Assembly (NCBI GenBank): GCA_963809485.1
Contig: CAWEJX010000002.1
Coordinates: 1 to 12,786 of the forward strand
Direction of reading: 5' to 3'
DNA: 12,786 nt
Source of the DNA: an uncultured Acidobacteriota bacterium
GTDB taxonomy: Bacteria; Acidobacteriota; UBA6911
The translations under genes were made by a program, and so were the position numbers. This document shows positions 1-12,786 of this stretch, in pieces. The stretch's first letter is position 1. Each line of letters starts with the position of its first letter. The notes beneath the pieces were generated by a model. The model made no database searches, was not told where the DNA came from, and worked only from the letters and a program-made list of their open reading frames with translations.

Positions 1-134
1 GCTTGTCACCATTGAGTCCATCGAATAGTAAGGTCCTGGTTCAGTCGCTCAAATCAAGGATTAGAGGTTGTGAGAGGCTACGATTTGAAGACGCTAAGTT
101 GTAGAAATGATTTAAGAAATGTTCAAGGATTTAG

Positions 135-211
135 TGGCGCACCCGGCCCGACTCGAACGGGCGGCCTGCGGATTCGAAGTCCGACGCTCTATCCAACTGA
201 GCTACGGGTGC
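135..211 (-). tRNA. tRNA-Arg (anticodon UCG)
   Basis: Reverse complement folds as GCACCCG-TA-GCTC AGTTGGATA GAGC-G-TCGGA CT TCG AA TCCGC-AGGCC-GCCCG TTCGAGT CGGGC-CGGGTGC-G-CCA: 7-bp acceptor stem, D arm, TTCGA T-loop, encoded CCA; one T/C mismatch at the top of the anticodon stem. Confidence 0.97.
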
Positions 212-213
212 GC

Positions 214-229
214 TTCATCAGCTGATGAA
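214..229. repeat. Perfect 16-bp palindrome TTCATCAGCTGATGAA
   Basis: Sequence equals its own reverse complement; lies between the tRNA-Arg 5' end and its putative -10 box. Confidence 0.9.
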
Positions 230-258
230 TTCTACAATCTTTGGCACATGCAGCGCAA
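229..258 (-). promoter_or_regulatory. Putative sigma70 promoter of tRNA-Arg
   Basis: Minus strand TTGCGC (258-253), 18-bp spacer, TAGAAT (234-229), just upstream of the tRNA 5' end at 211. Confidence 0.5.
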
Positions 259-468
259 CTTCATCCACGGACAAAAACGTCGATAATCCCATGGCGCAGC
301 CGGGGACAGCTATGTCCAATCTGAGCCCTTAGCTTCCGCACGGTTCTGGTGAAGAAGGCTCCCCAAAGCCGTCCGATAGGCAAATAACTGGTTGGCGATT
401 ATCCGAAGGGTCTGGAGAGATTGACTCAAGACTGCCGGCGAGGATCTCGCGATAATCGCCTTGATACC

Positions 469-517
469 GACTCCGGAGGCCCGTCCATAAATTTTAACGC
501 TGACTTACGCTGAAAAA
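469..517 (+). repeat. ACGCTGA 10-mer repeat element, copy 1 (2 units)
   Basis: GACTCCGGAGGCCCGTCCATA-AATTTT-AACGCTGACT-TACGCTGAAAAA; aligns without gaps to 3154-3195 and shares its ending with 3201-3222. Confidence 0.85.
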
Positions 518-564
518 CCCTTTTGAGGCAACCGATTTGGGGCCATACTGCTGTGCTGTGCGTG

Positions 565-594
565 TTGCTACCTGGAAAGGAATCGATTTATACT
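565..594 (+). promoter_or_regulatory. Putative sigma70 promoter of the ThDP enzyme gene
   Basis: TTGCTA (565-570), 18 bp, TATACT (589-594), in an AT-rich tract ~57 bp before ATG 651. Confidence 0.45.
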
Positions 595-650
595 CATTAA
601 AGAATTTTTTCCTTATTAACCTAAACCATCTTCGCCAGAGGCGGGGGATT

Positions 651-2615
651 ATGAAAGACACGCGCAAAACGGGAGGCAATCCAAAAAAAATGCAATCCTC
701 GCGCAGGTCGTTTCTCGCGGCCACGGCTGCCACGGCCGCTACGGCCGGCACCGGAATTCTGCATCAGGAAAAACTCTTCGGCCAGGCTGCGATTCCAACC
801 ATACGCATTCCCAAAGCAGTGGACGAATCGCTGGCTGCGCCCATCCATCGGCCAAGTTTTTCCGGCAAGGGCATGACCGGGGCCCAGGTTTTCGCCAACC
901 TCTGCAAGGATGAGGACCTCGCGGCCCTGTTCTGCGCGGCAGGCAATTACAGCATTATCAATGCCATCGCCGAAGCCGGAATTCCCTGCTACGGCGGACG
1001 CACGGAAGGAGGAATGTGCGCGGCGGCCGATGGCTTCTGCCGCGTCACCGGCGAAGTCGCCGCCTGCTCGGGCACCGAAGGCCCCGGTCTCACGCACATG
1101 ATCATGAACATCGGCTCCGCGCACTTCGCCAACAGCCCCCTCCTGGTGCTCGCCAGCAACGCGAACCTCAAGTCCGAGGATAACCAGAAGGGGATTCAGT
1201 TCATGTACCAGCAGCCGATCACCGAAGGCCTGAAAAAGTACGGCAAGCGCATCACCGCGCCGAACCGCGTGTACGAATATGGCGCGCACGCATTCCGCCA
1301 GCTGAAATCCGGCGTTCCCGATGTTGTACACCTGGACTTCCCTGCCGAGGTCGCTGCCGAACTCTTCCCCGATTCCTCCAAACTCGAACGCTTCTACAAA
1401 AAAGAACAGTATCGCGCTGAATCGCGAGCCTTCCCCGGCACCAAAGAAGTCCGGCAGGCTATCGATATGATCACCAGGGCGGAGCGGCCTGTGCTCATTG
1501 CAGGGCACGGCATCTTCGTTCGCAAAGCCTGCGAGGCGCTGATGCAGGCAGCCGAAAAACACGAGATAGCCGTCGTCGGATCCGGCCCTGTGCGCGGGCA
1601 CTTTCCGGACGAGCACCGTCTTTCCGCCAGCATGTCTAACGACGCCCTGATGAGCGCGGACCTGGTCGTCTTCGTCGGCCAGTATTCCATGCCGACGCCC
1701 GAAGAGTGGACACTGCCCCCGGGCGTGAAAACCATCCGGGTTCACCCCACGCAGGAGGATCTGGGCCGGAACTGGCCGCTCGACCTGGGCATCGTCAGCG
1801 ACGAGAAAGTTTTCATGGAGGCCCTGGCGAACGGACTCCCCGCCAAAAAGCGCGATTCCTGGGTCCGGGAAATCGCGGCGGCGAAGCAGAAGTGGGAAAA
1901 GGAACAGCTCGCCCTTTACAACACGATGCTCAAATACACCCGCGACACCAACAGCCTCCATCCCTTCATCCTGTGCAAGGAAGTCCACGATTTCCTATAC
2001 AAAGGCGATATCGATCCCAAGCAGACCGTCACGGGATGGGGCGGCAACATGATTGGATTCGCCTGCATGCGATGGCTGCGCGCTCATCGTCCGGGCCAGG
2101 AGGTGACCGTCTGCTTCCAGTTCGGGGCCATGGGACCGGACCTGGCCATGATGATGGGACCCGCCGTGGCTGTCCAAAGAGGCATCGGCCCGCATGCAGC
2201 CTACAAGGGCGCACCGGTCGTGGTAGTAACCGGCGATGCCGGCATGGCCTATAGCCTGCTCGAGCTCGATACCTTTGTCAAATACAAGCTGCCCGTGATC
2301 TGTGTCGTCTACAACAACGACTGCTGGGGAACCTTCACCATGGCGGAATCCTCGCCCCGCGCCCTGCACATGTACCTGTTCCAGGAAAACCTGCGCTACG
2401 ACAAAATGGCCGAACACCTGGGCACGCGCGGCGAGTATGTGCGGACACCCGAGGATCTGCGCGCCGCCCTGAAGCGCAGCTACGACGCAGCCGCCAGGCA
2501 AGGTTATTCCACTCTGATCAATTGCCAGGGAATCAGGGAATTCAATGTCCCCAGCCTATATCCTCCAGGATTGATTTTTGGGCCGGAACCGGGAATCGGA
2601 GCCATACGCCACTGA
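651..2615 (+). CDS. ThDP-dependent enzyme (acetolactate synthase / oxalyl-CoA decarboxylase / 2-hydroxyacyl-CoA lyase superfamily) with putative Tat signal peptide, 654 aa
   Basis: PYR domain GGRTEGGMCAAADGFCRVTG (catalytic Glu position) and EGPGLTH; central domain AERPVLIAGHG and ADLVVFVG; PP domain GDAGMAY...VVYNN (GDG-X-NN ThDP/Mg motif variant). Start moved from 537 to ATG 651 (GGGGG SD at 643-647; ATG 690 is an alternative). N-terminal SRRSFL followed by an Ala-rich stretch. Confidence 0.92.
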   Translation: MKDTRKTGGNPKKMQSSRRSFLAATAATAATAGTGILHQEKLFGQAAIPTIRIPKAVDESLAAPIHRPSFSGKGMTGAQVFANLCKDEDLAALFCAAGNYSIINAIAEAGIPCYGGRTEGGMCAAADGFCRVTGEVAACSGTEGPGLTHMIMNIGSAHFANSPLLVLASNANLKSEDNQKGIQFMYQQPITEGLKKYGKRITAPNRVYEYGAHAFRQLKSGVPDVVHLDFPAEVAAELFPDSSKLERFYKKEQYRAESRAFPGTKEVRQAIDMITRAERPVLIAGHGIFVRKACEALMQAAEKHEIAVVGSGPVRGHFPDEHRLSASMSNDALMSADLVVFVGQYSMPTPEEWTLPPGVKTIRVHPTQEDLGRNWPLDLGIVSDEKVFMEALANGLPAKKRDSWVREIAAAKQKWEKEQLALYNTMLKYTRDTNSLHPFILCKEVHDFLYKGDIDPKQTVTGWGGNMIGFACMRWLRAHRPGQEVTVCFQFGAMGPDLAMMMGPAVAVQRGIGPHAAYKGAPVVVVTGDAGMAYSLLELDTFVKYKLPVICVVYNNDCWGTFTMAESSPRALHMYLFQENLRYDKMAEHLGTRGEYVRTPEDLRAALKRSYDAAARQGYSTLINCQGIREFNVPSLYPPGLIFGPEPGIGAIRH

Positions 2616-2624
2616 TTGGAGTTC

Positions 2625-3119
2625 ATGCGCTTGGCATTAAAAAAGGCTCGCTCTTCCATCGACGAGGTCAACCGCCTGCTCGAGGATTACGCGAAGCGCG
2701 GCGTTTTCCGGGGATTCAGCCGGCAACCCGTGCGGCACGGCGCCGCAGCGTTCAAATTGGTTTGGTTCCACAATTGTGTTTTCGACCTGATTGTGGACAG
2801 GCGGAAGAAAACCATCTCGATCCCTGTTGTCTTGCCTCGCGTGCCGGCCGATATTTATCCGAATTTCAAAGCGTTCGTCCATTCCCACCATGACGAGAGC
2901 CTGCCGGAGCACCGGCGGACCGAAAAAGCCAAAGCGCGTCTGCGATGCTCGAAAAACCACGGCAATGCATCTATCGGAATTACGGTCCGCGATGGTGATT
3001 ATGCGTATGCGCTTCAGAGACTCATCCACCTGGTTCACGAAACCTTTGTGATTTATCTGTTGGACGGGAGATACCGCGATTACGTGGTTGAGCAGCTCGG
3101 CGCCAATCCCGAATGGTAG
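2625..3119 (+). CDS. Hypothetical protein (~164 aa), probably co-transcribed with the ThDP enzyme
   Basis: Starts within 10 bp of the upstream stop (GGAG at 2618-2621; TTG 2616 or 2631 are alternative starts). Protein-like composition with alternating helix/strand pattern; no family recognised. Confidence 0.78.
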   Translation: MRLALKKARSSIDEVNRLLEDYAKRGVFRGFSRQPVRHGAAAFKLVWFHNCVFDLIVDRRKKTISIPVVLPRVPADIYPNFKAFVHSHHDESLPEHRRTEKAKARLRCSKNHGNASIGITVRDGDYAYALQRLIHLVHETFVIYLLDGRYRDYVVEQLGANPEW

Positions 3120-3153
3120 ATAGGCTACTTTTTCCCTGGCGCGTGCATCGGAC

Positions 3154-3222
3154 GGCTCTGGGGGCCCCTCCTCCAATTTTAACGCTGACGTACGCCGATA
3201 AACGCTGACATACGCTGAAAAA
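3154..3222 (+). repeat. ACGCTGA 10-mer repeat element, copy 2 (4 units)
   Basis: GGCTCTGGGGGCCCCTCCTCC-AATTTT-AACGCTGACG-TACGCCGATA-AACGCTGACA-TACGCTGAAAAA; exact 10-bp period. Confidence 0.9.
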
Positions 3223-3232
3223 ATATATAAAT

Positions 3233-3257
3233 CTAATCCCTAATCGCTAATCACTAA
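3233..3257 (+). repeat. 7-bp tandem repeat (CTAATCN)x3.5
   Basis: CTAATCC-CTAATCG-CTAATCA-CTAA, immediately 3' of tRNA-His. Confidence 0.85.
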
Positions 3258-3264
3258 GAGAGGG

Positions 3265-3341
3265 TGGGGTGAGCGACGGGGATCGAACCCGCGGCCGCTG
3301 GAGCCACAATCCAGAGCTCTACCAGCTGAGCTACGCTCACC
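3265..3341 (-). tRNA. tRNA-His (anticodon GUG) with encoded G-1 and CCA
   Basis: Reverse complement G-GTGAGCG-TA-GCTC AGCTGGTA GAGC-T-CTGGA TT GTG GC TCCAG-CGGCC-GCGGG TTCGATC CCCGT-CGCTCAC-C-CCA; G-1:C73 is the bacterial His identity pair. Confidence 0.97.
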
Positions 3342-3362
3342 ACATGCGGAAAATCAGCGGAA

Positions 3363-3371
3363 ATAATAGCA
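3363..3371 (-). promoter_or_regulatory. Putative extended -10 promoter for tRNA-His
   Basis: Minus strand TGCTATTAT (TGn-TATAAT-like) ~22 bp upstream of the tRNA; no well-spaced -35 seen. Confidence 0.45.
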
Positions 3372-3406
3372 CGATTCGCGCAATGCGTGGGCCTTTTTTC
3401 CAGGCT

Positions 3407-4588
3407 CTATTCTCCCAGCAAAGTCTGCCTCAGCGCATTCATCGCCGAGGGCTCCGTTATTGCCACGACCGTGTCATTCGCCTGCAGTTTGCTGTCGCCG
3501 GTGACAATCTGGGACTTGTTGCCCCGCACGATGGCCGTCAGCAGGCAGCCTGCGGGCAGGTTCAAATTGCGTATCGGAACGTTCAGCGCCGGGGAGTCCG
3601 AATGCAGCTGGACCTCCACCACTTCCAGGTTGCCGCGCCGCAGCAGGGAGAGCGGTACGAGATCGCTCGTTGCAACTTCCTGCTCAATCAACTGGTACAT
3701 CAGCCTCGTGGCGCTGATGGTCTCCTCAATTCCCAGCTTGTGAAACGTATCCTCGTTGGCCGGGTTGTTGACTCGCCCGATGGCGCGCGGCACGCCGAAC
3801 CACCGTTTCGCCGCCTGGCAGATGATCAGGTTGTCCTCATCGTCGCCGGTAACGGCAACCACCAGGTCCGCGCGCTCCATTCCCACCTGCACCATCGTCC
3901 GTATTTCACATGCATCGCCGAAAAACACCGCCTCGCCCAGTTCGTCGTGCAGCGCGTGAAAGCGCAGCGGCCGCTTTTCCAGGATCAGCACTTCATCGCC
4001 CTTGCTCAGCAGGGCCCGCCCGAGGTTATGTCCGACCTTGCCGCCGCCGGCGATGATGATGTAGTCCGGGTGGCCGTTCTTGCGGCTGGCGCGCTTCTCG
4101 GCGAGCTGCTTGGGCGTGGGCAGGTTTGCCGCATATAGACGATGCATCTGGTGCGTCAGGTCCCAATATTGATCAATGCTCTGGTAAGCCCGGCCCAGCA
4201 GCCGGTCATGGAAGATGCCCGCTCCAAGAGTCGTGATGCACAGAGTCTCGACTCCCACTTCGCGATAGATTTCCGCGCGCAGTGGGTCGTAGATGCGGGC
4301 CATCACACGCGGCACCTGAAACAGGGTCTTGGCAATCTGCGCCGCCATGATGTTGGTGTTGTCGCCGTTCGTCACCGTGAGGAAAGCATCGGCATTTTCG
4401 ATCCCTGCCTCGCGCAGCACATCGGCGTTGATGCCGATCCCGTTGATGGCGCGCCCGCTGAAATTTTCACCCAGCCGGCGGAATGCGGAGGTGTCCACGT
4501 CTATAATGCTTACATCGTGACCTTCGGAACTCAGCATCAAAGCCAGAGTCGAACCGACGCGGCCGCAGCCCAAAATTACCACACGCAT
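3407..4588 (-). CDS. trkA: TrkA/KtrA-family RCK regulatory protein; fusion of two modules (RCK_N - linker - RCK_N + RCK_C), 393 aa
   Basis: MRVVILGCGRVG...IDVD...AGIENADAFLTVTNGDNTN, then a ~40-aa linker, then YIIIAGGGKVG...ADLVVAVTGDDEDN and an RCK_C-like end (DSPALNVPIRNLNLPAGCLLTAIVRG...GDSKLQANDTV). GGGAG SD upstream. Confidence 0.9.
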   Translation of the reverse strand: MRVVILGCGRVGSTLALMLSSEGHDVSIIDVDTSAFRRLGENFSGRAINGIGINADVLREAGIENADAFLTVTNGDNTNIMAAQIAKTLFQVPRVMARIYDPLRAEIYREVGVETLCITTLGAGIFHDRLLGRAYQSIDQYWDLTHQMHRLYAANLPTPKQLAEKRASRKNGHPDYIIIAGGGKVGHNLGRALLSKGDEVLILEKRPLRFHALHDELGEAVFFGDACEIRTMVQVGMERADLVVAVTGDDEDNLIICQAAKRWFGVPRAIGRVNNPANEDTFHKLGIEETISATRLMYQLIEQEVATSDLVPLSLLRRGNLEVVEVQLHSDSPALNVPIRNLNLPAGCLLTAIVRGNKSQIVTGDSKLQANDTVVAITEPSAMNALRQTLLGE

Positions 4589-4610
4589 GATCGTTCACTC
4601 CCGGCGCCGG

Positions 4611-5164
4611 TTAGCCCGGCACGCTGTCTATCAGAACTTCACAGGGCGGGCGCCGCATCAGCGCATCCGCAGTCCTTGTGAAAATGCTGGGCAGATGCCG
4701 CTCCACGGCCTGCACTCCCAGCACGACGATGTCGCCGCTGTATGTCTGCACAAGCTGGCCAATCCCCTCGCTGGCTTCGCGAGAACGCAACGTCGTCGTC
4801 ATGGATTTAAGGCCATGCCGTTCGACGATGTTCTGAGCATTTTTCAGCGCCTGCTGGGCTCGATCCTCGACGTCGGGCGGAAGCGGAGAATTCAGCGTCA
4901 CCAGGCGCGGCACCTCCACGACATAGGCAAGCACAATGCCGGCGTTCTGCTGCTTTCCCATCCGGCAGGCCAGTTCCACGGCTCTCTCCGTATAGAACAG
5001 ATCCAGGATAGGAACTATGATGCAGCGCGAGGCCTGCACGGAGAAGACGGCCCTGGCCACTTCCTGAGTCATAGCCCTGCGGCAGCCGCAGCATCCAAAA
5101 CAGAGTCAGCCCGAGGATGGCGGCAAACAGAAAGGCAATCAGTAACACCTAACGGATGAGGCAT
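4611..5164 (-). CDS. Universal stress protein (USP); core 4611-5072, with a probable N-terminal membrane anchor interrupted by two apparent +1 frameshifts
   Basis: Core shows the USP pattern IIVPI...AVELACRM...IVLAYVVEVP...GDIVVLG...TADALMRRPPCEVLI. Upstream, SD GAGGTGAT + ATG 5164 gives MPHPLG(V); the next frame gives LIAFLFAAILGLTLFWMLRLPQ; the next gives AMTQEVAR. The core is confident; the 5' extension is inference. Confidence 0.8.
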
Positions 5165-5172
5165 CGCGGCGA

Positions 5173-5361
5173 TCACCTCTGGCGCAGATAGCGCCAACGA
5201 GTAAAACCCAGCGCGAACACAAGCGCACCGACAATCAAGGCCTGAATGGTGCCCTGCCAGCCTAGTCCCTTCCGGACCGTGAATTGCAGGCCCCGGAGAA
5301 GCATGGCGGCACCCAACACCATGAGAAGAATTGCCATGATTTTTCGAAATCGGATCCACAT
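5173..5361 (-). CDS. Small membrane protein, 62 aa, two predicted TM helices
   Basis: Hydrophobic segments IMAILLMVLGAAMLL and IQALIVGALVFALGF with basic termini; its ATG overlaps the permease stop (TGATG). Confidence 0.75.
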   Translation of the reverse strand: MWIRFRKIMAILLMVLGAAMLLRGLQFTVRKGLGWQGTIQALIVGALVFALGFTRWRYLRQR

Positions 5362-6911
5362 CAGGGCACCACGGTTTTTGAAGTGGAACCGCCGGCTTTT
5401 TTCTTCCGCTCCACTTCAATTTTGAACTGCTCCAGGAGTTCCCACTCCCCTGTATCCGCCAGGATCTCCAGCTGCTCCGCATCCCAATCGTGCGGGGTGC
5501 TCCGGAAAATGGGCAGTTTGCTTTTATACCGATACCAGATGTAGTATCCCACCCATGCCGCCACCCACAAAGGACCCAGGACGCGCGCGACCGCGTGAGT
5601 CCACAAAACGATGACGAGCATTCCCGCCGTCCCCAGAATGGCCAAAAATCCGAGCACGGGAATGTCCTTGCCCCGCCACTGAATATTGAGCGGCACGCGG
5701 TACGCCCGCGGCGTGCGCGGCTCGCGGATCCTCAACGCCACCAGGGCCATGCTCGCAAGGAGATATGCCAGCATGGCGCCGAAGGCGTACATATCCGCCA
5801 TGGTCTCTAGAGCCCTCTCGCCAGTCAGGAAACCAAACAGGGCTTCGAGCGCAGCAACGCATGCGAAGACCACGATGGCGCGCACCGGCGTGTGGTACTT
5901 GTGATGAACATGGGACAGCCACTTCCCGATGAGGCCCATTTCGGACATGCTGTATGCCAGCCGGCTGCAGCCCATAACACCCGTATTCGCCGAAATCAGC
6001 ACAATGGTCGCGGCAAGTACTGCCGCGATGGGACCGGCGAGAAATCCTATGTAAGGCAATTGGCTTGCAAGGTGCGCGACCGGATCGCCTTCGCGCGATG
6101 CAAGGTCCTGCCACGGAAGAATTCCCAGGCTCACTACCGGAAACGCCATGGCAAAGAGCAGGACTACCACGATCAGTGCCAGCGAGGTTCGAGGTATGAC
6201 TGTTCCCGGGCGGATCGTCTCCTGAGCAGCCTGAGACACGGACTCCAAACCGACAAAGGAAATCACCGCGATGCTGACGGCATAAAGGATCTGTTTGGTT
6301 GGAGGGAACGCCGTATGCCACTGGTGCAGGAAAAGGTCCGGATGCCAGGCGAAGGCAAATCCCAGAATCACGATGGAGGCTTCCATCGCCATATCCAGAA
6401 CGCCCAGGATTTCGTTAAACAGCGACGATTCGCGGACACCCTTAATATTAAGCACGATCAGGAAGCCGATAAAAACCATCGACTCGGCAAGCCAGATCAG
6501 GTTCACATGGTGGAAGGGACCAAAATCGACGGCAAAATTTCGGATGGCCGGGAAGAAGAAATTGACGTATCCTGCTGAGGCCATGGCAAACAGCGCGATG
6601 TCGACCGTGTAATCCAGCATGAGCGCGGCACCCGTCACGACGCCCCAGAAGTCGCCCATGCCACGGAAGGCAAAATACTGGCCGCCCCCTGCAACAGGAT
6701 AGGCCGCAGCCAATTCCGTGTGCGCCAGGCCCACAAAAATGTAGACGATGCCGGCGATCGCAAAAGCCAGCGGCGTGGCGCCCTGGGCCGCGGCGATGAC
6801 CAACCCTAGAGCGACGTAGACATCGGCTCCGACATCCGCGTAACCCCAGGTAAACGATCCCCAGACCGTGACCTGCCGCCTCAGCTTGACCTTCGGTTCC
6901 TGCGTTGCCAT
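5361..6911 (-). CDS. APC-superfamily permease, KUP/KimA-like candidate K+ transporter, 516 aa
   Basis: ~12 hydrophobic segments; APC motifs ELAAAYPVAGGGQYF, LNIKGVRES, GLESVSQAAQE, SRLAYSMS, HHKYHTP. KUP/KimA-like motifs GYADVGADVY, LMLDY, GLES, MYAFG. Start moved to ATG 6911 (GGAG upstream). APC call is firm; K+ specificity is inference. Confidence 0.88.
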   Translation of the reverse strand: MATQEPKVKLRRQVTVWGSFTWGYADVGADVYVALGLVIAAAQGATPLAFAIAGIVYIFVGLAHTELAAAYPVAGGGQYFAFRGMGDFWGVVTGAALMLDYTVDIALFAMASAGYVNFFFPAIRNFAVDFGPFHHVNLIWLAESMVFIGFLIVLNIKGVRESSLFNEILGVLDMAMEASIVILGFAFAWHPDLFLHQWHTAFPPTKQILYAVSIAVISFVGLESVSQAAQETIRPGTVIPRTSLALIVVVLLFAMAFPVVSLGILPWQDLASREGDPVAHLASQLPYIGFLAGPIAAVLAATIVLISANTGVMGCSRLAYSMSEMGLIGKWLSHVHHKYHTPVRAIVVFACVAALEALFGFLTGERALETMADMYAFGAMLAYLLASMALVALRIREPRTPRAYRVPLNIQWRGKDIPVLGFLAILGTAGMLVIVLWTHAVARVLGPLWVAAWVGYYIWYRYKSKLPIFRSTPHDWDAEQLEILADTGEWELLEQFKIEVERKKKAGGSTSKTVVP

Positions 6912-6997
6912 GAAGCAAACACTCCGGACAGACGGCAAAGCTTAGTCCTGAAGGGTAATAAATTCAATAGATGACGCATTTGAAAACGCCACCTATT

Positions 6998-8536
6998 TCA
7001 CGAATTATAAGTCTTTTTTAATTCACCTTTCAGGATTTTTCCGAGGTCATTGCGGGGCAGGGAGTGCCTGAATTCCACAGCTGAAAGCCTTTGATAGCCG
7101 GCCAGTCGGGCATTGGCCCAGTCCTTGAGGGTAATTTCTCCAAGGGGAGAGTCCAACTGCTTTTTCACTACCAGGGCCAGAGGGCTTTCGCCCCACTCGC
7201 TGTGGGGTATACCAATGACGGCAGCCTCTGCAACTTCCGGGTGTTTCAAAAGAACCTCCTCGATGTCGCTGGGATAAATATTGATGCCGCCGGAGATGAT
7301 GAGGTCCTTTTTGCGGTCCAGTATGTAAAGGTAGCCGTCTTCGTCCAGCCTGCCGATATCGCCGGTTCTGATGTAGAGCCTTCCCTTCCCATCGGGCCAA
7401 AGGATTTCCCGGCTTTTTTCCGGATTTTTGTAATATTCCGCCATCATGGAAAAGTTATATCCGGCGATTTCACCGGTTTCTCCTTGCGGGAGTTCCCGGC
7501 CTTCGTCGTCGATGATTTTTATGTCGCCGCCCAGACGCGGCTTCCCTACCGAGCCCAGCTTGGAGAACTGTTCATTCGGCCGCAGAACGGTGCTTATCCC
7601 TTCGGTAAGGCCATAAAGCTCCACAAGTTTGGATTTAGGAAATTTGCGCAGGATCTCGCTCTTAGTCGACTTGCGCAAGGGCGCGGCGGCGGATAGAAAA
7701 ACCTCGATCGATGATGTATCGAATCGGCTGAATTCCGCATAATCCATGATCCTGATGAATTGAGTAGGAACCAGAAATGCGTGCGTGCATCTTTCCTTTT
7801 GAACCAGATCCAGGAATGCGCCCGGGTCGAAGGAACCCATGAGGACCACGGTGCCTCCAGCCAGAAGCGTGGGAAGGTAGATCAGCTGGGTACCGTTGGC
7901 GTAAAGCGGCGTGCTGACAAGGCTGATAGCCTCGTTGTGGACCCGGAATTCCAGGGCGCAGGTCATTGCGAAATCAAGCCGGGCCCGGTGCGTGTGCACA
8001 ATCCCTTTGGGCACTCCGGTTGTGCCGGAACTGTAGACGATGTTGTAGAGATCTTCCGTCGTAATGACTCTGTCCGGCTCTTCGCAGGATGACGCGCCGA
8101 GAAAATTATCGTAATCCGTCCAGCCTGCAGCGGGTCCTTCCAGCACAATCCTTTGAGTGATAGAGCTACAGTTTTCCACGAGGTTCAGAACCGATCGTGC
8201 TGCAAAAAGTGCTTTGGGGCACGCATCCCTCAGTTGGAGGGCGACAGTCTCTTTTTTCAGCATGGTCGAGAGGGGGACGATGGCGGCTCCGGCTTTCAGC
8301 GCTCCGAACATGATTTCCGGATATTCGAGACAGTTGCGGCTCAGGATGGCCACCCGGCCGCCTTTGGAGACTCCAAGTCTGACAAGGCCGTTCGCAACTT
8401 TGTTAATGTTATAGTTGAACTTTTTCCAGGAAAGCCTCTTCTCTTCATAAATAATTGCCGTCTTATCCGGATACCATTTTGCATGCCCCGCCATGAATTC
8501 CGTCAATCCCATGAACTTCTCTGGTATTAGCGCCAA
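6998..8536 (-). CDS. AMP-dependent acyl-CoA synthetase/ligase (class I adenylate-forming), 512 aa
   Basis: YSSGTTGVPKG, ELYGLTEG, RTGDIGRLDEDGYLYILDRKKDLIISGGINIYP, LPRNDLGKILK; TTG start with GGAG SD 8 nt upstream. Confidence 0.95.
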   Translation of the reverse strand: MALIPEKFMGLTEFMAGHAKWYPDKTAIIYEEKRLSWKKFNYNINKVANGLVRLGVSKGGRVAILSRNCLEYPEIMFGALKAGAAIVPLSTMLKKETVALQLRDACPKALFAARSVLNLVENCSSITQRIVLEGPAAGWTDYDNFLGASSCEEPDRVITTEDLYNIVYSSGTTGVPKGIVHTHRARLDFAMTCALEFRVHNEAISLVSTPLYANGTQLIYLPTLLAGGTVVLMGSFDPGAFLDLVQKERCTHAFLVPTQFIRIMDYAEFSRFDTSSIEVFLSAAAPLRKSTKSEILRKFPKSKLVELYGLTEGISTVLRPNEQFSKLGSVGKPRLGGDIKIIDDEGRELPQGETGEIAGYNFSMMAEYYKNPEKSREILWPDGKGRLYIRTGDIGRLDEDGYLYILDRKKDLIISGGINIYPSDIEEVLLKHPEVAEAAVIGIPHSEWGESPLALVVKKQLDSPLGEITLKDWANARLAGYQRLSAVEFRHSLPRNDLGKILKGELKKTYNS

Positions 8537-8673
8537 AGCCCGTTCTCCAATAGGACAAATATGCCAGGATTTTGCATTACCCGATATATTCTGAAAACCA
8601 GACCCTTGATTGTAAAAATTTTAAGGTAGTTTCATAAAATCCAGTAGTTTGATTTCCTGTTGAATGATTAAAT

Positions 8674-8715
8674 TGTCAGCGTTCATCAGCGGCTTTGTCA
8701 GCGTATATCAGCGTT
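8674..8715 (-). repeat. ACGCTGA 10-mer repeat element, copy 3 (4 units, inverted relative to copies 1-2)
   Basis: Reverse complement reads AACGCTGATA-TACGCTGACA-AA-GCCGCTGATG-AACGCTGACA. Confidence 0.85.
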
Positions 8716-8883
8716 ATCAAATGCTGGAGCCGTCAAACACCAAAAGCCATCCATCAGAGCCGAGGGATTAACGACGATTTCCCTTGTAGCAAAGGACTTC
8801 AGGGTTTCAAGGTAGTATTCGCGAAGGCCGATGTCGGAGTGTTCGCCAAAGAGGCAGACACGGCCCGGAACGAAAATTTTCAT
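8698..8883 (-). pseudogene. Internally deleted remnant: GHMP (galactokinase-like) kinase N-terminus joined to a sugar-nucleotidyltransferase-like C-terminus, 61 aa
   Basis: AGGGGG SD + ATG; MKIFVPGRVCLFGEHSD matches the galactokinase N-terminal PGRVNLIGEHTD motif. It runs straight into DIGLREYYLETLKSF, resembling the terminal (Y/F)DxG...YL motif of GalU-type nucleotidyltransferases. All catalytic core is missing. Confidence 0.7.
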
Positions 8884-8902
8884 AGCAACCCCCTGGGATG
8901 CA

Positions 8903-8935
8903 GCCAAGAATCTACACGAATCCGTGGAATCCGTG
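8903..8935 (+). repeat. 9-bp periodic repeat GAATCCGTG x2, preceded by oppositely oriented degenerate units
   Basis: GCCAAGAATCTACAC-GAATCCGTG-GAATCCGTG; exact tandem at 8918-8926 and 8927-8935; CACG/CGTG dyad at the centre. Confidence 0.65.
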
Positions 8936-8997
8936 CCGTTTTTTCTTTAAAACATTCCCGAATTTGGCAATATTGTGTCTCCGGAGGCCACCTATCT

Positions 8998-10389
8998 ATG
9001 ATAACGATGAAATTCGGCGGGACTTCCGTCGGGGATGTCCAGCGGATCAACGATGCCGCCACGATTGTCCGATCGCATTTGTCCAGGCACGCTGTGGTTG
9101 TGGCATCGGCCATGGGCGGGGTAACCAACACCCTGCTGGATACCGCGCACATGGCCGCGCGCCGTGAAACCCGCCGGGTCGAGGCGAATATCGAGGGATT
9201 GAGGCAAAAGCACCTCCAGGTCGCGCATATGGTAGAGCAACCTGAAGCCCGCAAAGCCCTCATCGATCGCCAGGCGCGCCTCATCGACGAACTCTCAAAC
9301 CTTTGCCGCGGCGTCAGCCTGCTCAAGGAACTGACCGTCCGCTCTCTCGACGCGATATCGGCTTTTGGAGAGGTGTTGTCCTGCGTGCAGCTGGCGGCGA
9401 TACTGAACAGCCGCGGCGTGGATGCCGAATTCATCGACTCCCGGGCGATCGTCCGGACGGATGATCATTTCGGGGAAGCAGCCGTGGATTTTTCCGCAAC
9501 CAAGCGTAGCGCGCGAAAGAGGCTTTTGCCGCTCGTGAAGAGAAACATCGTGCCCATTGTCACGGGCTTCATCGCAAGCACGGAAGACGGCCTCACAACG
9601 ACTCTGGGCCGCAGCGGATCGGACTATACGGCTTCAATTATCGGCGCCGCGCTCGACAGCGAAGAAATCTGGATATGGACGGATGTGGACGGGGTCATGA
9701 CAGCCGATCCCCGCGCGGTCAAGAAGGCGACTGTGCTGCCGGAGATCACCTATCGCGAGGCGGCGGAGATGTCCTACTTCGGCGCGAAGGTGATCCATCC
9801 CAAGACCATGATGCCGGCCATCGAAAACAACATTCCTATCAGGATCAAAAACACATTTAATCCCTCTCATCCCGGGACGCTCATTTCGAAGACGGCCAAC
9901 CAGACGGAGAGAGTGGTAAAGAATGTTACTTCGATCGACAAACTCAGCCTGGTGTCGATCGAGGGAAACGGAATGGTGGGGGTGCCCGGAATTTCCGCAA
10001 GGATTTTTGCGGCGCTGGCGCGGGTTCAGGTGAATGTGATGATGATCTCGCAGGCGTCTTCGGAACATAACGTCTGCCTGGTGATTCCCCAGAATGACTG
10101 CAAACGGGCGCTGAAGGCGCTCCGGGGGGAATTCGAAATCGAATTTGCGAAAAAGGCTATCGACGATATCAAGCTGCACGATAACGTATCCATCGTTGCG
10201 GTTGTGGGCGCCGGGATGAAGGGCACGCGCGGCATCGCCGCAAAGACATTTACGGCCGTGGCAAGCGCAGGAGTGAACATCATGGCGATTGCGCAGGGTT
10301 CGTCGGAATTGAATATTTCCTTTGTCGTCGCACAGTCGGAGGCCCGCCAGGCCGTGCAGGCGATCCACGACGCGTTTCATCTGGCGTAG
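8998..10389 (+). CDS. lysC: Monofunctional aspartokinase with two ACT domains (ThrA-N-terminal-like), 463 aa
   Basis: MITMKFGGTSVG, VVVASAMGGVTN, TTTLGRSGSDYTA, IWTDVDGVMTADPR, EMSYFGAKVIHP; ACT repeats MISQASSE and AIAQGSSELNISFVV; GGAGG at 8983-8987. No homoserine dehydrogenase domain. Confidence 0.95.
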   Translation: MITMKFGGTSVGDVQRINDAATIVRSHLSRHAVVVASAMGGVTNTLLDTAHMAARRETRRVEANIEGLRQKHLQVAHMVEQPEARKALIDRQARLIDELSNLCRGVSLLKELTVRSLDAISAFGEVLSCVQLAAILNSRGVDAEFIDSRAIVRTDDHFGEAAVDFSATKRSARKRLLPLVKRNIVPIVTGFIASTEDGLTTTLGRSGSDYTASIIGAALDSEEIWIWTDVDGVMTADPRAVKKATVLPEITYREAAEMSYFGAKVIHPKTMMPAIENNIPIRIKNTFNPSHPGTLISKTANQTERVVKNVTSIDKLSLVSIEGNGMVGVPGISARIFAALARVQVNVMMISQASSEHNVCLVIPQNDCKRALKALRGEFEIEFAKKAIDDIKLHDNVSIVAVVGAGMKGTRGIAAKTFTAVASAGVNIMAIAQGSSELNISFVVAQSEARQAVQAIHDAFHLA

Positions 10390-10486
10390 CATGGCAAATT
10401 GGCTGGGGGATATGCATAAGACATCAATCGGACGGCGGTGGAAAGCTGCCCTTACGAATTATTAGAGGAAGTCATACAACGAGGTC

Positions 10487-11386
10487 ATGATGCTGATACA
10501 TTCTATTCTGGATGCCGTCGGAAACACTCCGTTGATAAGTCTTAAAAAGCTGTCTTCAGGCAATGTATTCGTCAAAGCCGAGCACCTAAATCCCGGGGGC
10601 AGCGTCAAGGACCGCGTCGCCAAGTACATCATCGAGTCTGCGGAAAAACAGGGAAAGCTCAAGCCCGGGATGATAATCATTGAAGCGACCTCCGGAAACA
10701 CGGGAATAGGCCTGGCGCTGATAGGCAGGATCAAGGGCTACGAGGTCGTTTGCATCATGCCCGAGAACATGAGCGAAGAACGCAAGAAGATCATCCGGGC
10801 ATTCGGGGGAGAAATCGTCTTCAGTCCGGCCGAGGGGAGCCTGTCGGCAAGCCTCAAGAAGCTAAAAGAAATCATCGGTCCGGAACCGCAGAAATATTTC
10901 GTCGCCAATCAGTTCAGCAATCCGGACAATCCGGAGGTTCATTACCTGCAAACAGCTCCGGAAATCTGGAAGGACGCAGGCGGCAGCATCGATGTTTTTG
11001 TAGCCGGAGTGGGAAGCGGGGGAACGCTTCAGGGCATCGGGAAGTTTCTCAAAGAGAAGAAGCCTTCCACCAAAATCGTCGCGGTGGAACCGAAGAACAG
11101 CGCGGCATTGCTCGGGAGGGAACCGGGGCTTCACAACATCCAGGGAATCGGGGACGGATTCATTCCGGATGTCCTCGATGTGAACCTCGTGGACATGGTG
11201 TTCACGGTTTCCGACGAAGAAGCTATCGAAACAACCCGAAGGCTCTCCCGCGAAGAAGGATTGCTCGTAGGGACCTCTTCCGGGGCCAATGTTTTTGCGG
11301 CTCTCCACATGGATAACGGCCACAACAGGATTGTAACCATACTGCCCGACCGGGCGGAGAGATATTTCAGCACAGCTTTGCTGTAA
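10487..11386 (+). CDS. cysK: Cysteine synthase (O-acetylserine sulfhydrylase, PLP-dependent)
   Basis: VGNTPL, NPGGSVKDR (PLP lysine), EATSGNTGIG, NQFSNPDN, GVGSGGT, HNIQGIG, GTSSGAN, PDRAERYFST; GAGG SD (start 10487 or 10490). Confidence 0.93.
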   Translation: MMLIHSILDAVGNTPLISLKKLSSGNVFVKAEHLNPGGSVKDRVAKYIIESAEKQGKLKPGMIIIEATSGNTGIGLALIGRIKGYEVVCIMPENMSEERKKIIRAFGGEIVFSPAEGSLSASLKKLKEIIGPEPQKYFVANQFSNPDNPEVHYLQTAPEIWKDAGGSIDVFVAGVGSGGTLQGIGKFLKEKKPSTKIVAVEPKNSAALLGREPGLHNIQGIGDGFIPDVLDVNLVDMVFTVSDEEAIETTRRLSREEGLLVGTSSGANVFAALHMDNGHNRIVTILPDRAERYFSTALL

Positions 11387-11603
11387 TTCCTGCCCAAATG
11401 CATCCCTGGCCCGGGAAGCATATTGCCATCTCTCCCGAACAGCGACTATGGCTAAAGCCTCCTTTTATCCACCGTTTGGTCCGCGCAATGCGTGCCAGTC
11501 ATCGGACTGCCCGTGGGACCTATCGCTGCAGAAATCAATAATCGCGGAAATGTCGGATAATTTTGCAGTCAGGAATTTTTTCGGCTGGCTTATACCCGGT
11601 CTC

Positions 11604-12786
11604 TTATAGAAACAGCTTGCCGGGATTGAAGAGGCCTTCCGGGTCAATGAGCGTCTTAAGCCTTTTCATAAGTTCAAGGCTGTCTCCGTGCTCTTCGGGT
11701 AGGAAGCGGCGCTTGCCGATTCCAATCCCGTGCTCCCCGGTGCAGGTGCCTTCGAGCGCCAAAGCCTGTTCTACGATGCGTCGATGCGCATCCTCAACCC
11801 TGGCCCATCGGGTGCTGTCCGTGGGTACATCCATGACAATGACGTGGATGTTGCCGTCGCCGGCGTGGCCGAAAACAAAGGCCCGGAGATCGCGCACTTC
11901 CTGCTTGATGAAGGCCACCATATCGCTGTAGCACGAAAGCGGGACCGCAACGTCCATGATGAGCGGCAGCAACCCGGGATTCTGCCGCTTGATGGACTCG
12001 AAGGTGAGGTGGCGCATTTCCCACAGACGGTCCCTCTCCGTCTGACCGATGCCCTTATCGATGAATGTGCTGGAATTTTCCGTGCAGATCTCTTCGATAT
12101 AGGCCATCTCTGCCCGGAGACCTTCCTCGCTGAAACCAGTGAACTCCATGAGCAACGTAGGCTGTTCCTGCATATATAGTTCCCTGTCCCGGTTGAGCAC
12201 ACCGATCACGTTGCTGTCGAGGAATTCCATTGCCGCTGGGGAGAATCCGGAACTCATAACCTGGAACACGGTGTCCGTGGCATTCTTTATCTCAGGGAAG
12301 GTGATGCGCAGCGCCATGAAATTTGCAGGCAGGCCGGCAAGCCTCAAGGTCGCTTCTGTGATGATGCCGAGAGTGCCTTCAGAGCCCGCAAAAAGGTGAA
12401 TGAGGTTGTAACCCGATGAGCTTTTTCGAGCCCTATTCCCTGCCCTGATGACGTTTCCTCCGGGCAGGACATCGGCCAAACGCAGGATATGGTCCTTTGT
12501 CGCCCCTATTTCACCGTTTTGACGCCGCTGGCGTTATTCCCGATCATCCCGCCGATAGTGGCTGCCGCGCCGGGATCGGGCGGGAAAAAGAGACCGTGGC
12601 GGCTAAGAGTTTTGTTCAGGTCCTTGTACATCACCCCTGCCTGCACATCGACCTGGAAGTCCTGCGGGTGGACCGCAAGTATTCCCTGCATTTCCTGGAA
12701 ATCGAGGACAATGCCATGGCTCACGGGGATCGGATTGCCCTCGAGGCTCGTTCCCACCCCCCAGGCGGTTACAGGGATCCGGCGTT
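11604..12786 (-). CDS. FAD-linked oxidase (GlcD / D-lactate dehydrogenase family); 5' end outside window; 1-nt deletion frameshift near 12507
   Basis: GTSLEGN, FFPPDPGAAATIGGMIGNNASG, RKSSSGYNLIHLFAGSEGTLGIITE, GHAGDGNIH, GTCTGEHGIGIGK, DPEGLFNPGK. The two ORF pieces join as KTVK-Y-GATKDHIL if one base is added to AAA TA- GGG GCG. Confidence 0.9.

Follow-up and report, generated by a model that had tools for sequence, protein, structure and literature searches.

The present analysis concerns a stretch of 12,786 nucleotides from an uncultured Acidobacteriota bacterium (the window), and in it a two-gene unit made up of the gene for a thiamine diphosphate (ThDP)-dependent enzyme and a small adjacent gene, here called the helper. 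We propose that the enzyme folds and is loaded with ThDP and Mg in the cytoplasm, where the helper would hold it as a private chaperone, and that the loaded enzyme would then be exported through twin-arginine translocation (Tat) and work in the periplasm. Its ancestor would have worked with a dedicated cytochrome c, and the branch to which the window enzyme belongs would have lost the cytochrome and altered its active site. Its present ThDP chemistry would most likely be self-contained, without coenzyme A (CoA) or an electron acceptor: either a 2-oxo acid would be decarboxylated non-oxidatively, or an anionic 2-hydroxy ketone would be split in a retro-acyloin reaction. The signal, the catalytic residues, the fold, the co-occurrence of the two genes and the order of the tree are direct results of the computation. 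As a whole, the reading of a helper-chaperoned, Tat-exported, periplasmic enzyme that cleaves C-C bonds non-oxidatively and without CoA is tentative, and we place it just short of an even chance. Its parts differ in strength. Export is likely, a role of the helper as private Tat chaperone is moderately favoured by analogy to TorD/DmsD, and the odds of a non-oxidative and CoA-free chemistry are about even.

Export signal and helper gene

The features of the unit are as follows.
651..2615, plus strand: gene of the ThDP-dependent enzyme, a Tat precursor of 654 aa (open reading frame translation, Pfam TPP_enzyme_N/M/C, structure model)
637..647, plus strand: purine-rich stretch 5' of Met1, a putative ribosome-binding site judging from its letters
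651..782, plus strand: twin-arginine signal peptide, residues 1-44, probably cleaved after G44 (TIGR01409 above cut-off, disorder in the model)
699..716, plus strand: twin-arginine motif SRRSFL, S17-R-R-S-F-L22 (homologue conservation, purifying selection)
783..872, plus strand: family-specific folded N-terminal extension (IPxIRIPKAVxESL), present in signal-less forms too (pLDDT, homologues)
873..1199, plus strand: PYR domain, with the CAAGNY loop at 933-950, catalytic E119 at 1005-1007, and Q183
1449..1826, plus strand: middle domain, with the ADP-binding arginines of HACL/OXC replaced
2067..2495, plus strand: PP domain, with D529 of the GDA motif at 2235-2237, N556 at 2316-2318 and F562 in the place of AcHACL E493
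2625..3119, plus strand: gene of the helper, coding for 164 aa, with a TTG at 2616 as an alternative start (profile match, co-occurrence with the signal)

A preliminary description of this DNA had read SRRSFL as a Tat signal, and the profile searches bear this out. TIGR01409 gave 25.8 bits on residues 1-74 (cut-off 16.7), and Pfam TAT_signal gave 17.4 on the N-terminus, below its cut-off of 22.7. The motif, defined as RRx[FL][hydrophobic] within the first 45 residues, was looked for in the 119 best homologues, the enzyme's own record excluded. It is present in 56 and absent from 54, the other 9 being truncated or ambiguous; among distant ThDP relatives of full length, the same pattern occurs in 2 of 77. 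The preliminary description had named lack of the arginine pair in homologues as grounds for refutation, and this applies to about half of the close ones; since these lack the signal, export is not essential. An uncharged stretch of 19 residues follows the motif. In a comparison with the 94% identical relative L102, codons 17-36, which hold the arginine pair and the hydrophobic region (h-region), differ by 10 silent and 2 replacement changes, so this segment is translated and maintained; the enzyme core differs by 136 silent and 27 replacement changes. Cleavage at LFG↓Q, as suggested earlier, is plausible from the corresponding sites of homologues, LFA↓A and LFG↓E/D.

A simple scan of the genome (G000) gave 24 open reading frames with Tat-like starts (for example C6:303190, C8:362972, C20:140860 and C20:148704). 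It is therefore not unusual here for an enzyme that is normally cytoplasmic to bear a Tat-like signal. Several of them presumably resemble aldo/keto reductases, a family we assign from a motif. Six homologues (L108, L118, P0013, P0064, P0071 and P0076) have N-termini of signal length in which the motif has decayed instead of being deleted. Loss of signals through deletion or decay is described as a general process in the available part of PMC5952966.

The preliminary description had left room for a start at the internal Met of MTGAQ. This candidate was rejected in favour of Met1. M75, at position 873 where the PYR domain begins, is replaced by I, L or V in 36 of the 114 homologues. The predicted model gives residues 51-80 a confident fold, with a predicted local distance difference test (pLDDT) score of 87-94. 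Residues 1-45 are disordered in the same model, which has an overall pLDDT of 85.7 and a predicted template modelling score of 0.88. As for the translocase, genome G000 has three TatA/B matches, and tatC was found in all 8 genomes searched among the 11 of the same genus that hold the enzyme.

The helper gene was missed in the preliminary description. It matches its profile with 228 bits. Neither a Pfam family nor an evident signal was found for it, and its confident model (pLDDT 92) predicts a fold like that of type III secretion chaperones and YbjN. Prediction of a complex between the helper and enzyme residues 1-75 scored 0.00 and gave no answer. In a first set of 80 genome loci, mostly from Acidobacteriota, 75 have a helper homologue and 64 a cytochrome cluster. 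The set that was then scored holds 173 enzyme loci, the window included; excluded from it were two loci of tatC, three further copies of the window gene itself, two duplicates and two enzyme-free loci. The 41 loci at least 68% identical to the window enzyme form what we call the window's branch. In this branch the helper is present in 13 of 13 assessable signal-bearing loci, in 0 of 10 signal-less loci and in 5 of 10 with an unreadable N-terminus; 12 of the signal labels in this count were corrected by hand, and the loci are related, some of them nearly identical, and are not independent trials. Outside the branch the helper accompanies the enzyme in 127 of 129 loci. The enzyme occurs in 11 of 29 other genomes of the genus. 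The nine copies with a readable start are all signal-less, and the helper is found in none of the 11. Loss of the helper could be checked in the largest signal-less lineage only. At one locus (G006, L097:5938-6531) the helper is kept beside Trk, Usp and permease genes with the enzyme cut to its last 30 codons, and a polysaccharide-export locus lies upstream.

Active site and loss of the cytochrome

PF02776, PF00205 and PF02775 match above cut-off and in this order, corresponding to the PYR, middle and PP domains. By its sequence the enzyme has all it needs for ThDP catalysis; it comes from a family without a name and belongs to neither HACL nor OXC. All 96 members in the alignment have E119, G98-N99-Y100, D529, N556 and H573, and 95 of them have Q183. 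Given that R477, R480 and H573 are invariant, the substrate would probably be anionic. The RTE motif is formed by residues 117-119 and GDA by residues 528-530. GDA had been listed earlier as a divergent motif, which has to be withdrawn because BbmA has GDA too. The kinship proposed with HACL, OXC and benzaldehyde lyase (BAL) was recovered by both sequence and fold searches, which returned HACL/HACS, OXC, BAL and BbmA at 19-24% identity. The earlier view that no close relative has been characterised is supported. None of the 25 named NCBIfam ThDP families shown (AHAS, OXC, GCL, POX, Xsc and IolD among them) reaches its cut-off, the best score being 187.6 bits against 587 for PRK05858, and protein atlas look-ups returned just unnamed or generic clusters.

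Residues were mapped to ApbHACS with the help of the available part of PMC11271303, with a presumed offset of six residues between the deposited chain and the published numbering. In this mapping E119 aligns to the catalytic Glu54, G98-N99-Y100 matches the G-F-P loop, and I182-Q183 matches the F-Q pair.

The link of the ancestral form to a cytochrome c, and its loss in the window's branch, also went unseen in the preliminary description. Counting was limited to loci with at least 900 nt upstream. A dedicated cytochrome c gene is present in 84 of 85 loci less than 68% identical to the window enzyme and in none of the 23 assessable loci of the window's branch, and there is none within the window. 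In a whole-genome search with the cytochrome profile the best match in G000 was 45.5 bits (true members score 155-224). Since this genome is 95.7% complete, the dedicated cytochrome counts as not found. The same search gave at most 57 bits in 15 genomes of the genus, and at most 65 or nothing in G061-G064. In L007 a short cytochrome is encoded 5 kb away from the enzyme; with the clean profile it scored 44 bits, and it was rejected as a dedicated one. A sample of 400 genomes across the phylum gave no further members of the branch; 24 of these genomes hold other subfamilies.

The core tree has 76 rows and is rooted on distant ThDP proteins; it was made by a quick method with no mixture model and has long outgroup branches. 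In it the window's branch is one clade of 48 rows (SH-aLRT support 100, stem 0.26) that arises from within the forms with both signal and cytochrome. Seven signature positions changed on its stem. P97, found in 100 of 100 cytochrome loci, became A in 33 of 33 branch loci; C96 (97 of 100) became A or V, W466 (92 of 100) N, A or H, and T467 (98 of 100) M or I; C487 (96 of 100) became V in 37 of 39, M561 (97 of 100) T in 36 of 38, and W562 (97 of 100) F in 33 of 37. The window protein lies in a signal-bearing grade adjoining the largest signal-less clade (support 99). With the outgroups and one long row removed, there are three changes of the signal state, and the approximately unbiased test rejects a tree with all signal-less forms in a single clade (p 7e-7). 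Besides the largest signal-less lineage there are two smaller ones (P0064/P0076 and P0086-P0095). By this tree the signal-less homologues are losses from a signal-bearing ancestor, and the signal was lost three times within the window's branch. Signal-bearing and signal-less members of the branch differ at just 5 fixed core positions. With the cytochrome gone from its branch, and the signal and the helper gone as well from its closest cousins, the window enzyme resembles an intermediate in the return of an enzyme family to the inside of the cell.

The periplasm is without CoA or NAD, and the cytoplasm is without cytochrome c. Selection has maintained one and the same site in forms with the signal and in forms without it, so the reaction would need neither CoA or NAD nor a periplasmic cytochrome, and this would leave non-oxidative decarboxylation or acyloin cleavage or formation.

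Evidence against the proposed reading and its rivals

Several observations weigh against the reading set out above, and some of them favour a rival. The h-region is the least hydrophobic of 57 sequences (best 13-residue hydropathy 1.28, median 1.49), which confirms a caution of the preliminary description, and tatC is present in G000 but split by a one-base insertion (C7:391769-392402). Both would suit a signal that is a decaying relic on an enzyme already cytoplasmic like its signal-less cousins, as would the absence of the signal from the 54 homologues and the nine readable same-genus copies counted above. The silent changes that prevail in the motif and h-region, the intact helper and the TIGR01409 score argue otherwise. 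The split of tatC is likely an assembly error, because the duplicate contigs of this assembly differ by indels at 8 and 11 sites per 7.5-7.8 kb and because tatC is whole in 9 of 11 genomes of the genus. We regard a relic signal as decidedly unlikely.

Two points touch the chaperone role. The fold match of the helper is middling (Z 8.4, root-mean-square deviation 3.2 and 108 residues aligned to a chain of SycN-YscB; best Foldseek E 0.009), and G064 has a signal-bearing enzyme with no helper match, its gene being at a contig end.

The non-oxidative chemistry has to be weighed against an exported oxidase or dehydrogenase, in which electrons from the enamine would pass to some general cytochrome of the periplasm or to another carrier, and in signal-less forms to a cytoplasmic acceptor. 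Further c-type cytochromes are indeed encoded in G000, as are a heme-copper oxidase and the maturation genes, so that there are possible electron acceptors. The ancestral link to cytochrome c in 84 of 85 loci points the same way, and so does C95, kept in 33 of 33 branch loci read. Ten genomes of one genus, in a sister subfamily, have C96A and still have the cytochrome. What speaks for the non-oxidative reading instead is that the seven changed positions lie near the cofactor and on the very branch that lost the cytochrome, that no conserved redox partner stands beside the 41 branch loci, and that the nucleotide-binding arginines are gone. It should be noted here that the tree puts cytochrome loss and active-site change together on a single branch (1 change), so that they count as one event, and that basal members of the branch are intermediate, which weakens a tight causal link between the two. 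G134 has the ancestral CCPGNY site, the signal and the helper with no cytochrome match at E 1e-15, so loss of the cytochrome does not force a change of the active site. We consider an oxidase rather unlikely.

A CoA-dependent lyase or decarboxylase of the HACL or OXC kind would have its closest folds in HACL, HACS and OXC, as is found here. The periplasm is not known to contain acyl-CoA, which counts against it, and the scores are far below the HACL/OXC cut-offs. By the mapping given above, the CoA-binding R260 of ApbHACS (R273 of AcHACL) corresponds to S329 or N330, with S/N across the family, and Arg is not among the commonest residues of these columns in 96 sequences; the ADP-binding R156 and R276 are replaced by V222 and Q344/Y345. 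The acid/base E493 of AcHACL, as given in the available part of PMC8760513, falls on F562 here and on W in cytochrome-linked forms. On the other side, the CoA-binding R400 falls on M473, in a low-confidence stretch, and adjoins a conserved R474, which is thus one residue off the second CoA arginine and is present in 89 of 96 sequences. The CoA-free substrate proposed earlier has some support in the loss of at least one CoA-binding and both ADP-binding arginines; R474 speaks against it. A CoA-dependent enzyme appears improbable to us.

Still more so, to the point of being hardly credible, is a non-catalytic protein that binds or scavenges ThDP outside the membrane. Periplasmic thiamine-binding proteins exist, and the enzyme has no conserved pathway genes alongside, both of which would suit it. 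It is opposed by the invariant catalytic Glu, Gln and active-site loop, by the lack of a transporter neighbour and by the retention of cytoplasmic copies.

Known systems and gene neighbourhood

BAL acts on CoA-free substrates without a flavin, which is the chemistry proposed for the window enzyme, and we know of no export signal in BAL or BbmA. To our knowledge the characterised enzymes of the ThDP superfamily are cytoplasmic or organellar, and a full-text literature search, with most subscription journals outside its coverage, found no exported ThDP enzyme. BAL/formolase (2AG0, 2UZ1, 4QQ8) and BbmA (8X3X) belong to the same branch of the superfamily as the window enzyme; BbmA is its best single-sequence match (E 1e-39), and the two are about 21-24% identical to it and have different active-site loops. 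HACL, HACS and OXC (6XN8, 8VZA-K, 7PT1-4, 2Q27, 7AYG) share with it the three-domain fold (Foldseek E 4e-33, TM 0.69/0.82), the catalytic Glu and Gln and the Mg-binding Asp/Asn. The window enzyme, at 19-24% identity, differs from them in its Tat signal, its N- and C-terminal extensions, its own helper gene, the replaced ADP arginines and one CoA arginine, the lack of an E493-type acid, and a GNY loop in place of G-F/I-P.

Operons of a Tat enzyme with a private chaperone are known from TorA/TorD and DmsA/DmsD (available part of PMC3316669). As in those, a small cytoplasmic-looking protein is here inherited and lost together with the Tat signal; unlike TorD, the helper has a predicted alpha/beta fold like type III chaperones and YbjN, and the cofactor is ThDP. 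If export is true, ThDP would join the cofactors carried by Tat, with a chaperone whose fold is not known in such a role. The ancestral CCPGNY form with its cytochrome c has an analogy in the pyrroloquinoline quinone (PQQ) alcohol dehydrogenases, which combine a vicinal disulfide with a dedicated cytochrome c (available part of PMC12997753). The resemblance of the ancestral cysteine pair to that disulfide is a lead only. In the window's branch, unlike in these dehydrogenases, both the second cysteine and the cytochrome are missing, and some cytochrome-linked relatives are also without the pair. An obligatory link of the C95-C96 disulfide to the cytochrome was weakened as a candidate by the ten one-genus loci named above, by C96A together with a cytochrome in 3 of 100 other loci, and by some loci with S95 or H95. 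A literature search on the vicinal disulfide found nothing. That an exported family with a new kind of Tat chaperone contains a branch which passed from cytochrome-coupled oxidation to acceptor-free cleavage, with repeated return to the cytoplasm, is conceivable, but we consider it somewhat less likely than not.

The signal-less and helper-less copies, about 80% identical, are natural controls; they should express in the cytoplasm without partners and would be the easiest route to the reaction of the family. Candidate residues for electron transfer are indicated by some 30 fixed differences that set the branch apart from the form with the cytochrome. If the proposal is true, three living stages (cytochrome with signal and helper, signal and helper, bare enzyme) would map the residues of a flavin-free ThDP oxidase and also show what the helper recognises. 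CoA-free ThDP lyases are wanted as biocatalysts.

Around the branch loci no conserved neighbour was found beyond the helper, with no pathway genes and no clue to the substrate. Seven of the 41 (L005, L006, L086, L089, L092, L096 and L125) have a gene with two Glyoxalase_4 domains in the vicinity of the enzyme, divergently upstream where examined; a secreted 350-aa protein of no known kind is near it in 6 of 41, and a gene we take to be UGSC-like also in 6 of 41. A deeper second subfamily (L098, L099 and L186-L210), with SCPGNY, CAPGNY or HCPGNY loops, has signal and helper and usually the cytochrome, and several genomes carry two systems.

Two tRNA genes bound the two-gene unit.
135..211, minus strand: tRNA-Arg(TCG), left boundary
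3265..3340, minus strand: tRNA-His(GTG), right boundary

A scan for promoters and terminators gave counts no higher than expected by chance. The entire window (1-12786) is a 98.4% duplicate of G000 C5:1-7789 and C16:2-7519, with one-base indels scattered along it; this rules out the second genome copy as a paralogue, and the duplicate is probably a strain variant within the bin. Positions 3407-12786 hold unrelated neighbours, namely a double TrkA-domain protein, Usp, an amino-acid permease, an AMP-binding ligase, an aspartokinase, a cysteine-synthase-like pyridoxal phosphate enzyme and a flavin adenine dinucleotide-linked oxidase. The oxidase gene is broken near 12506, where contig C16 carries one extra base.
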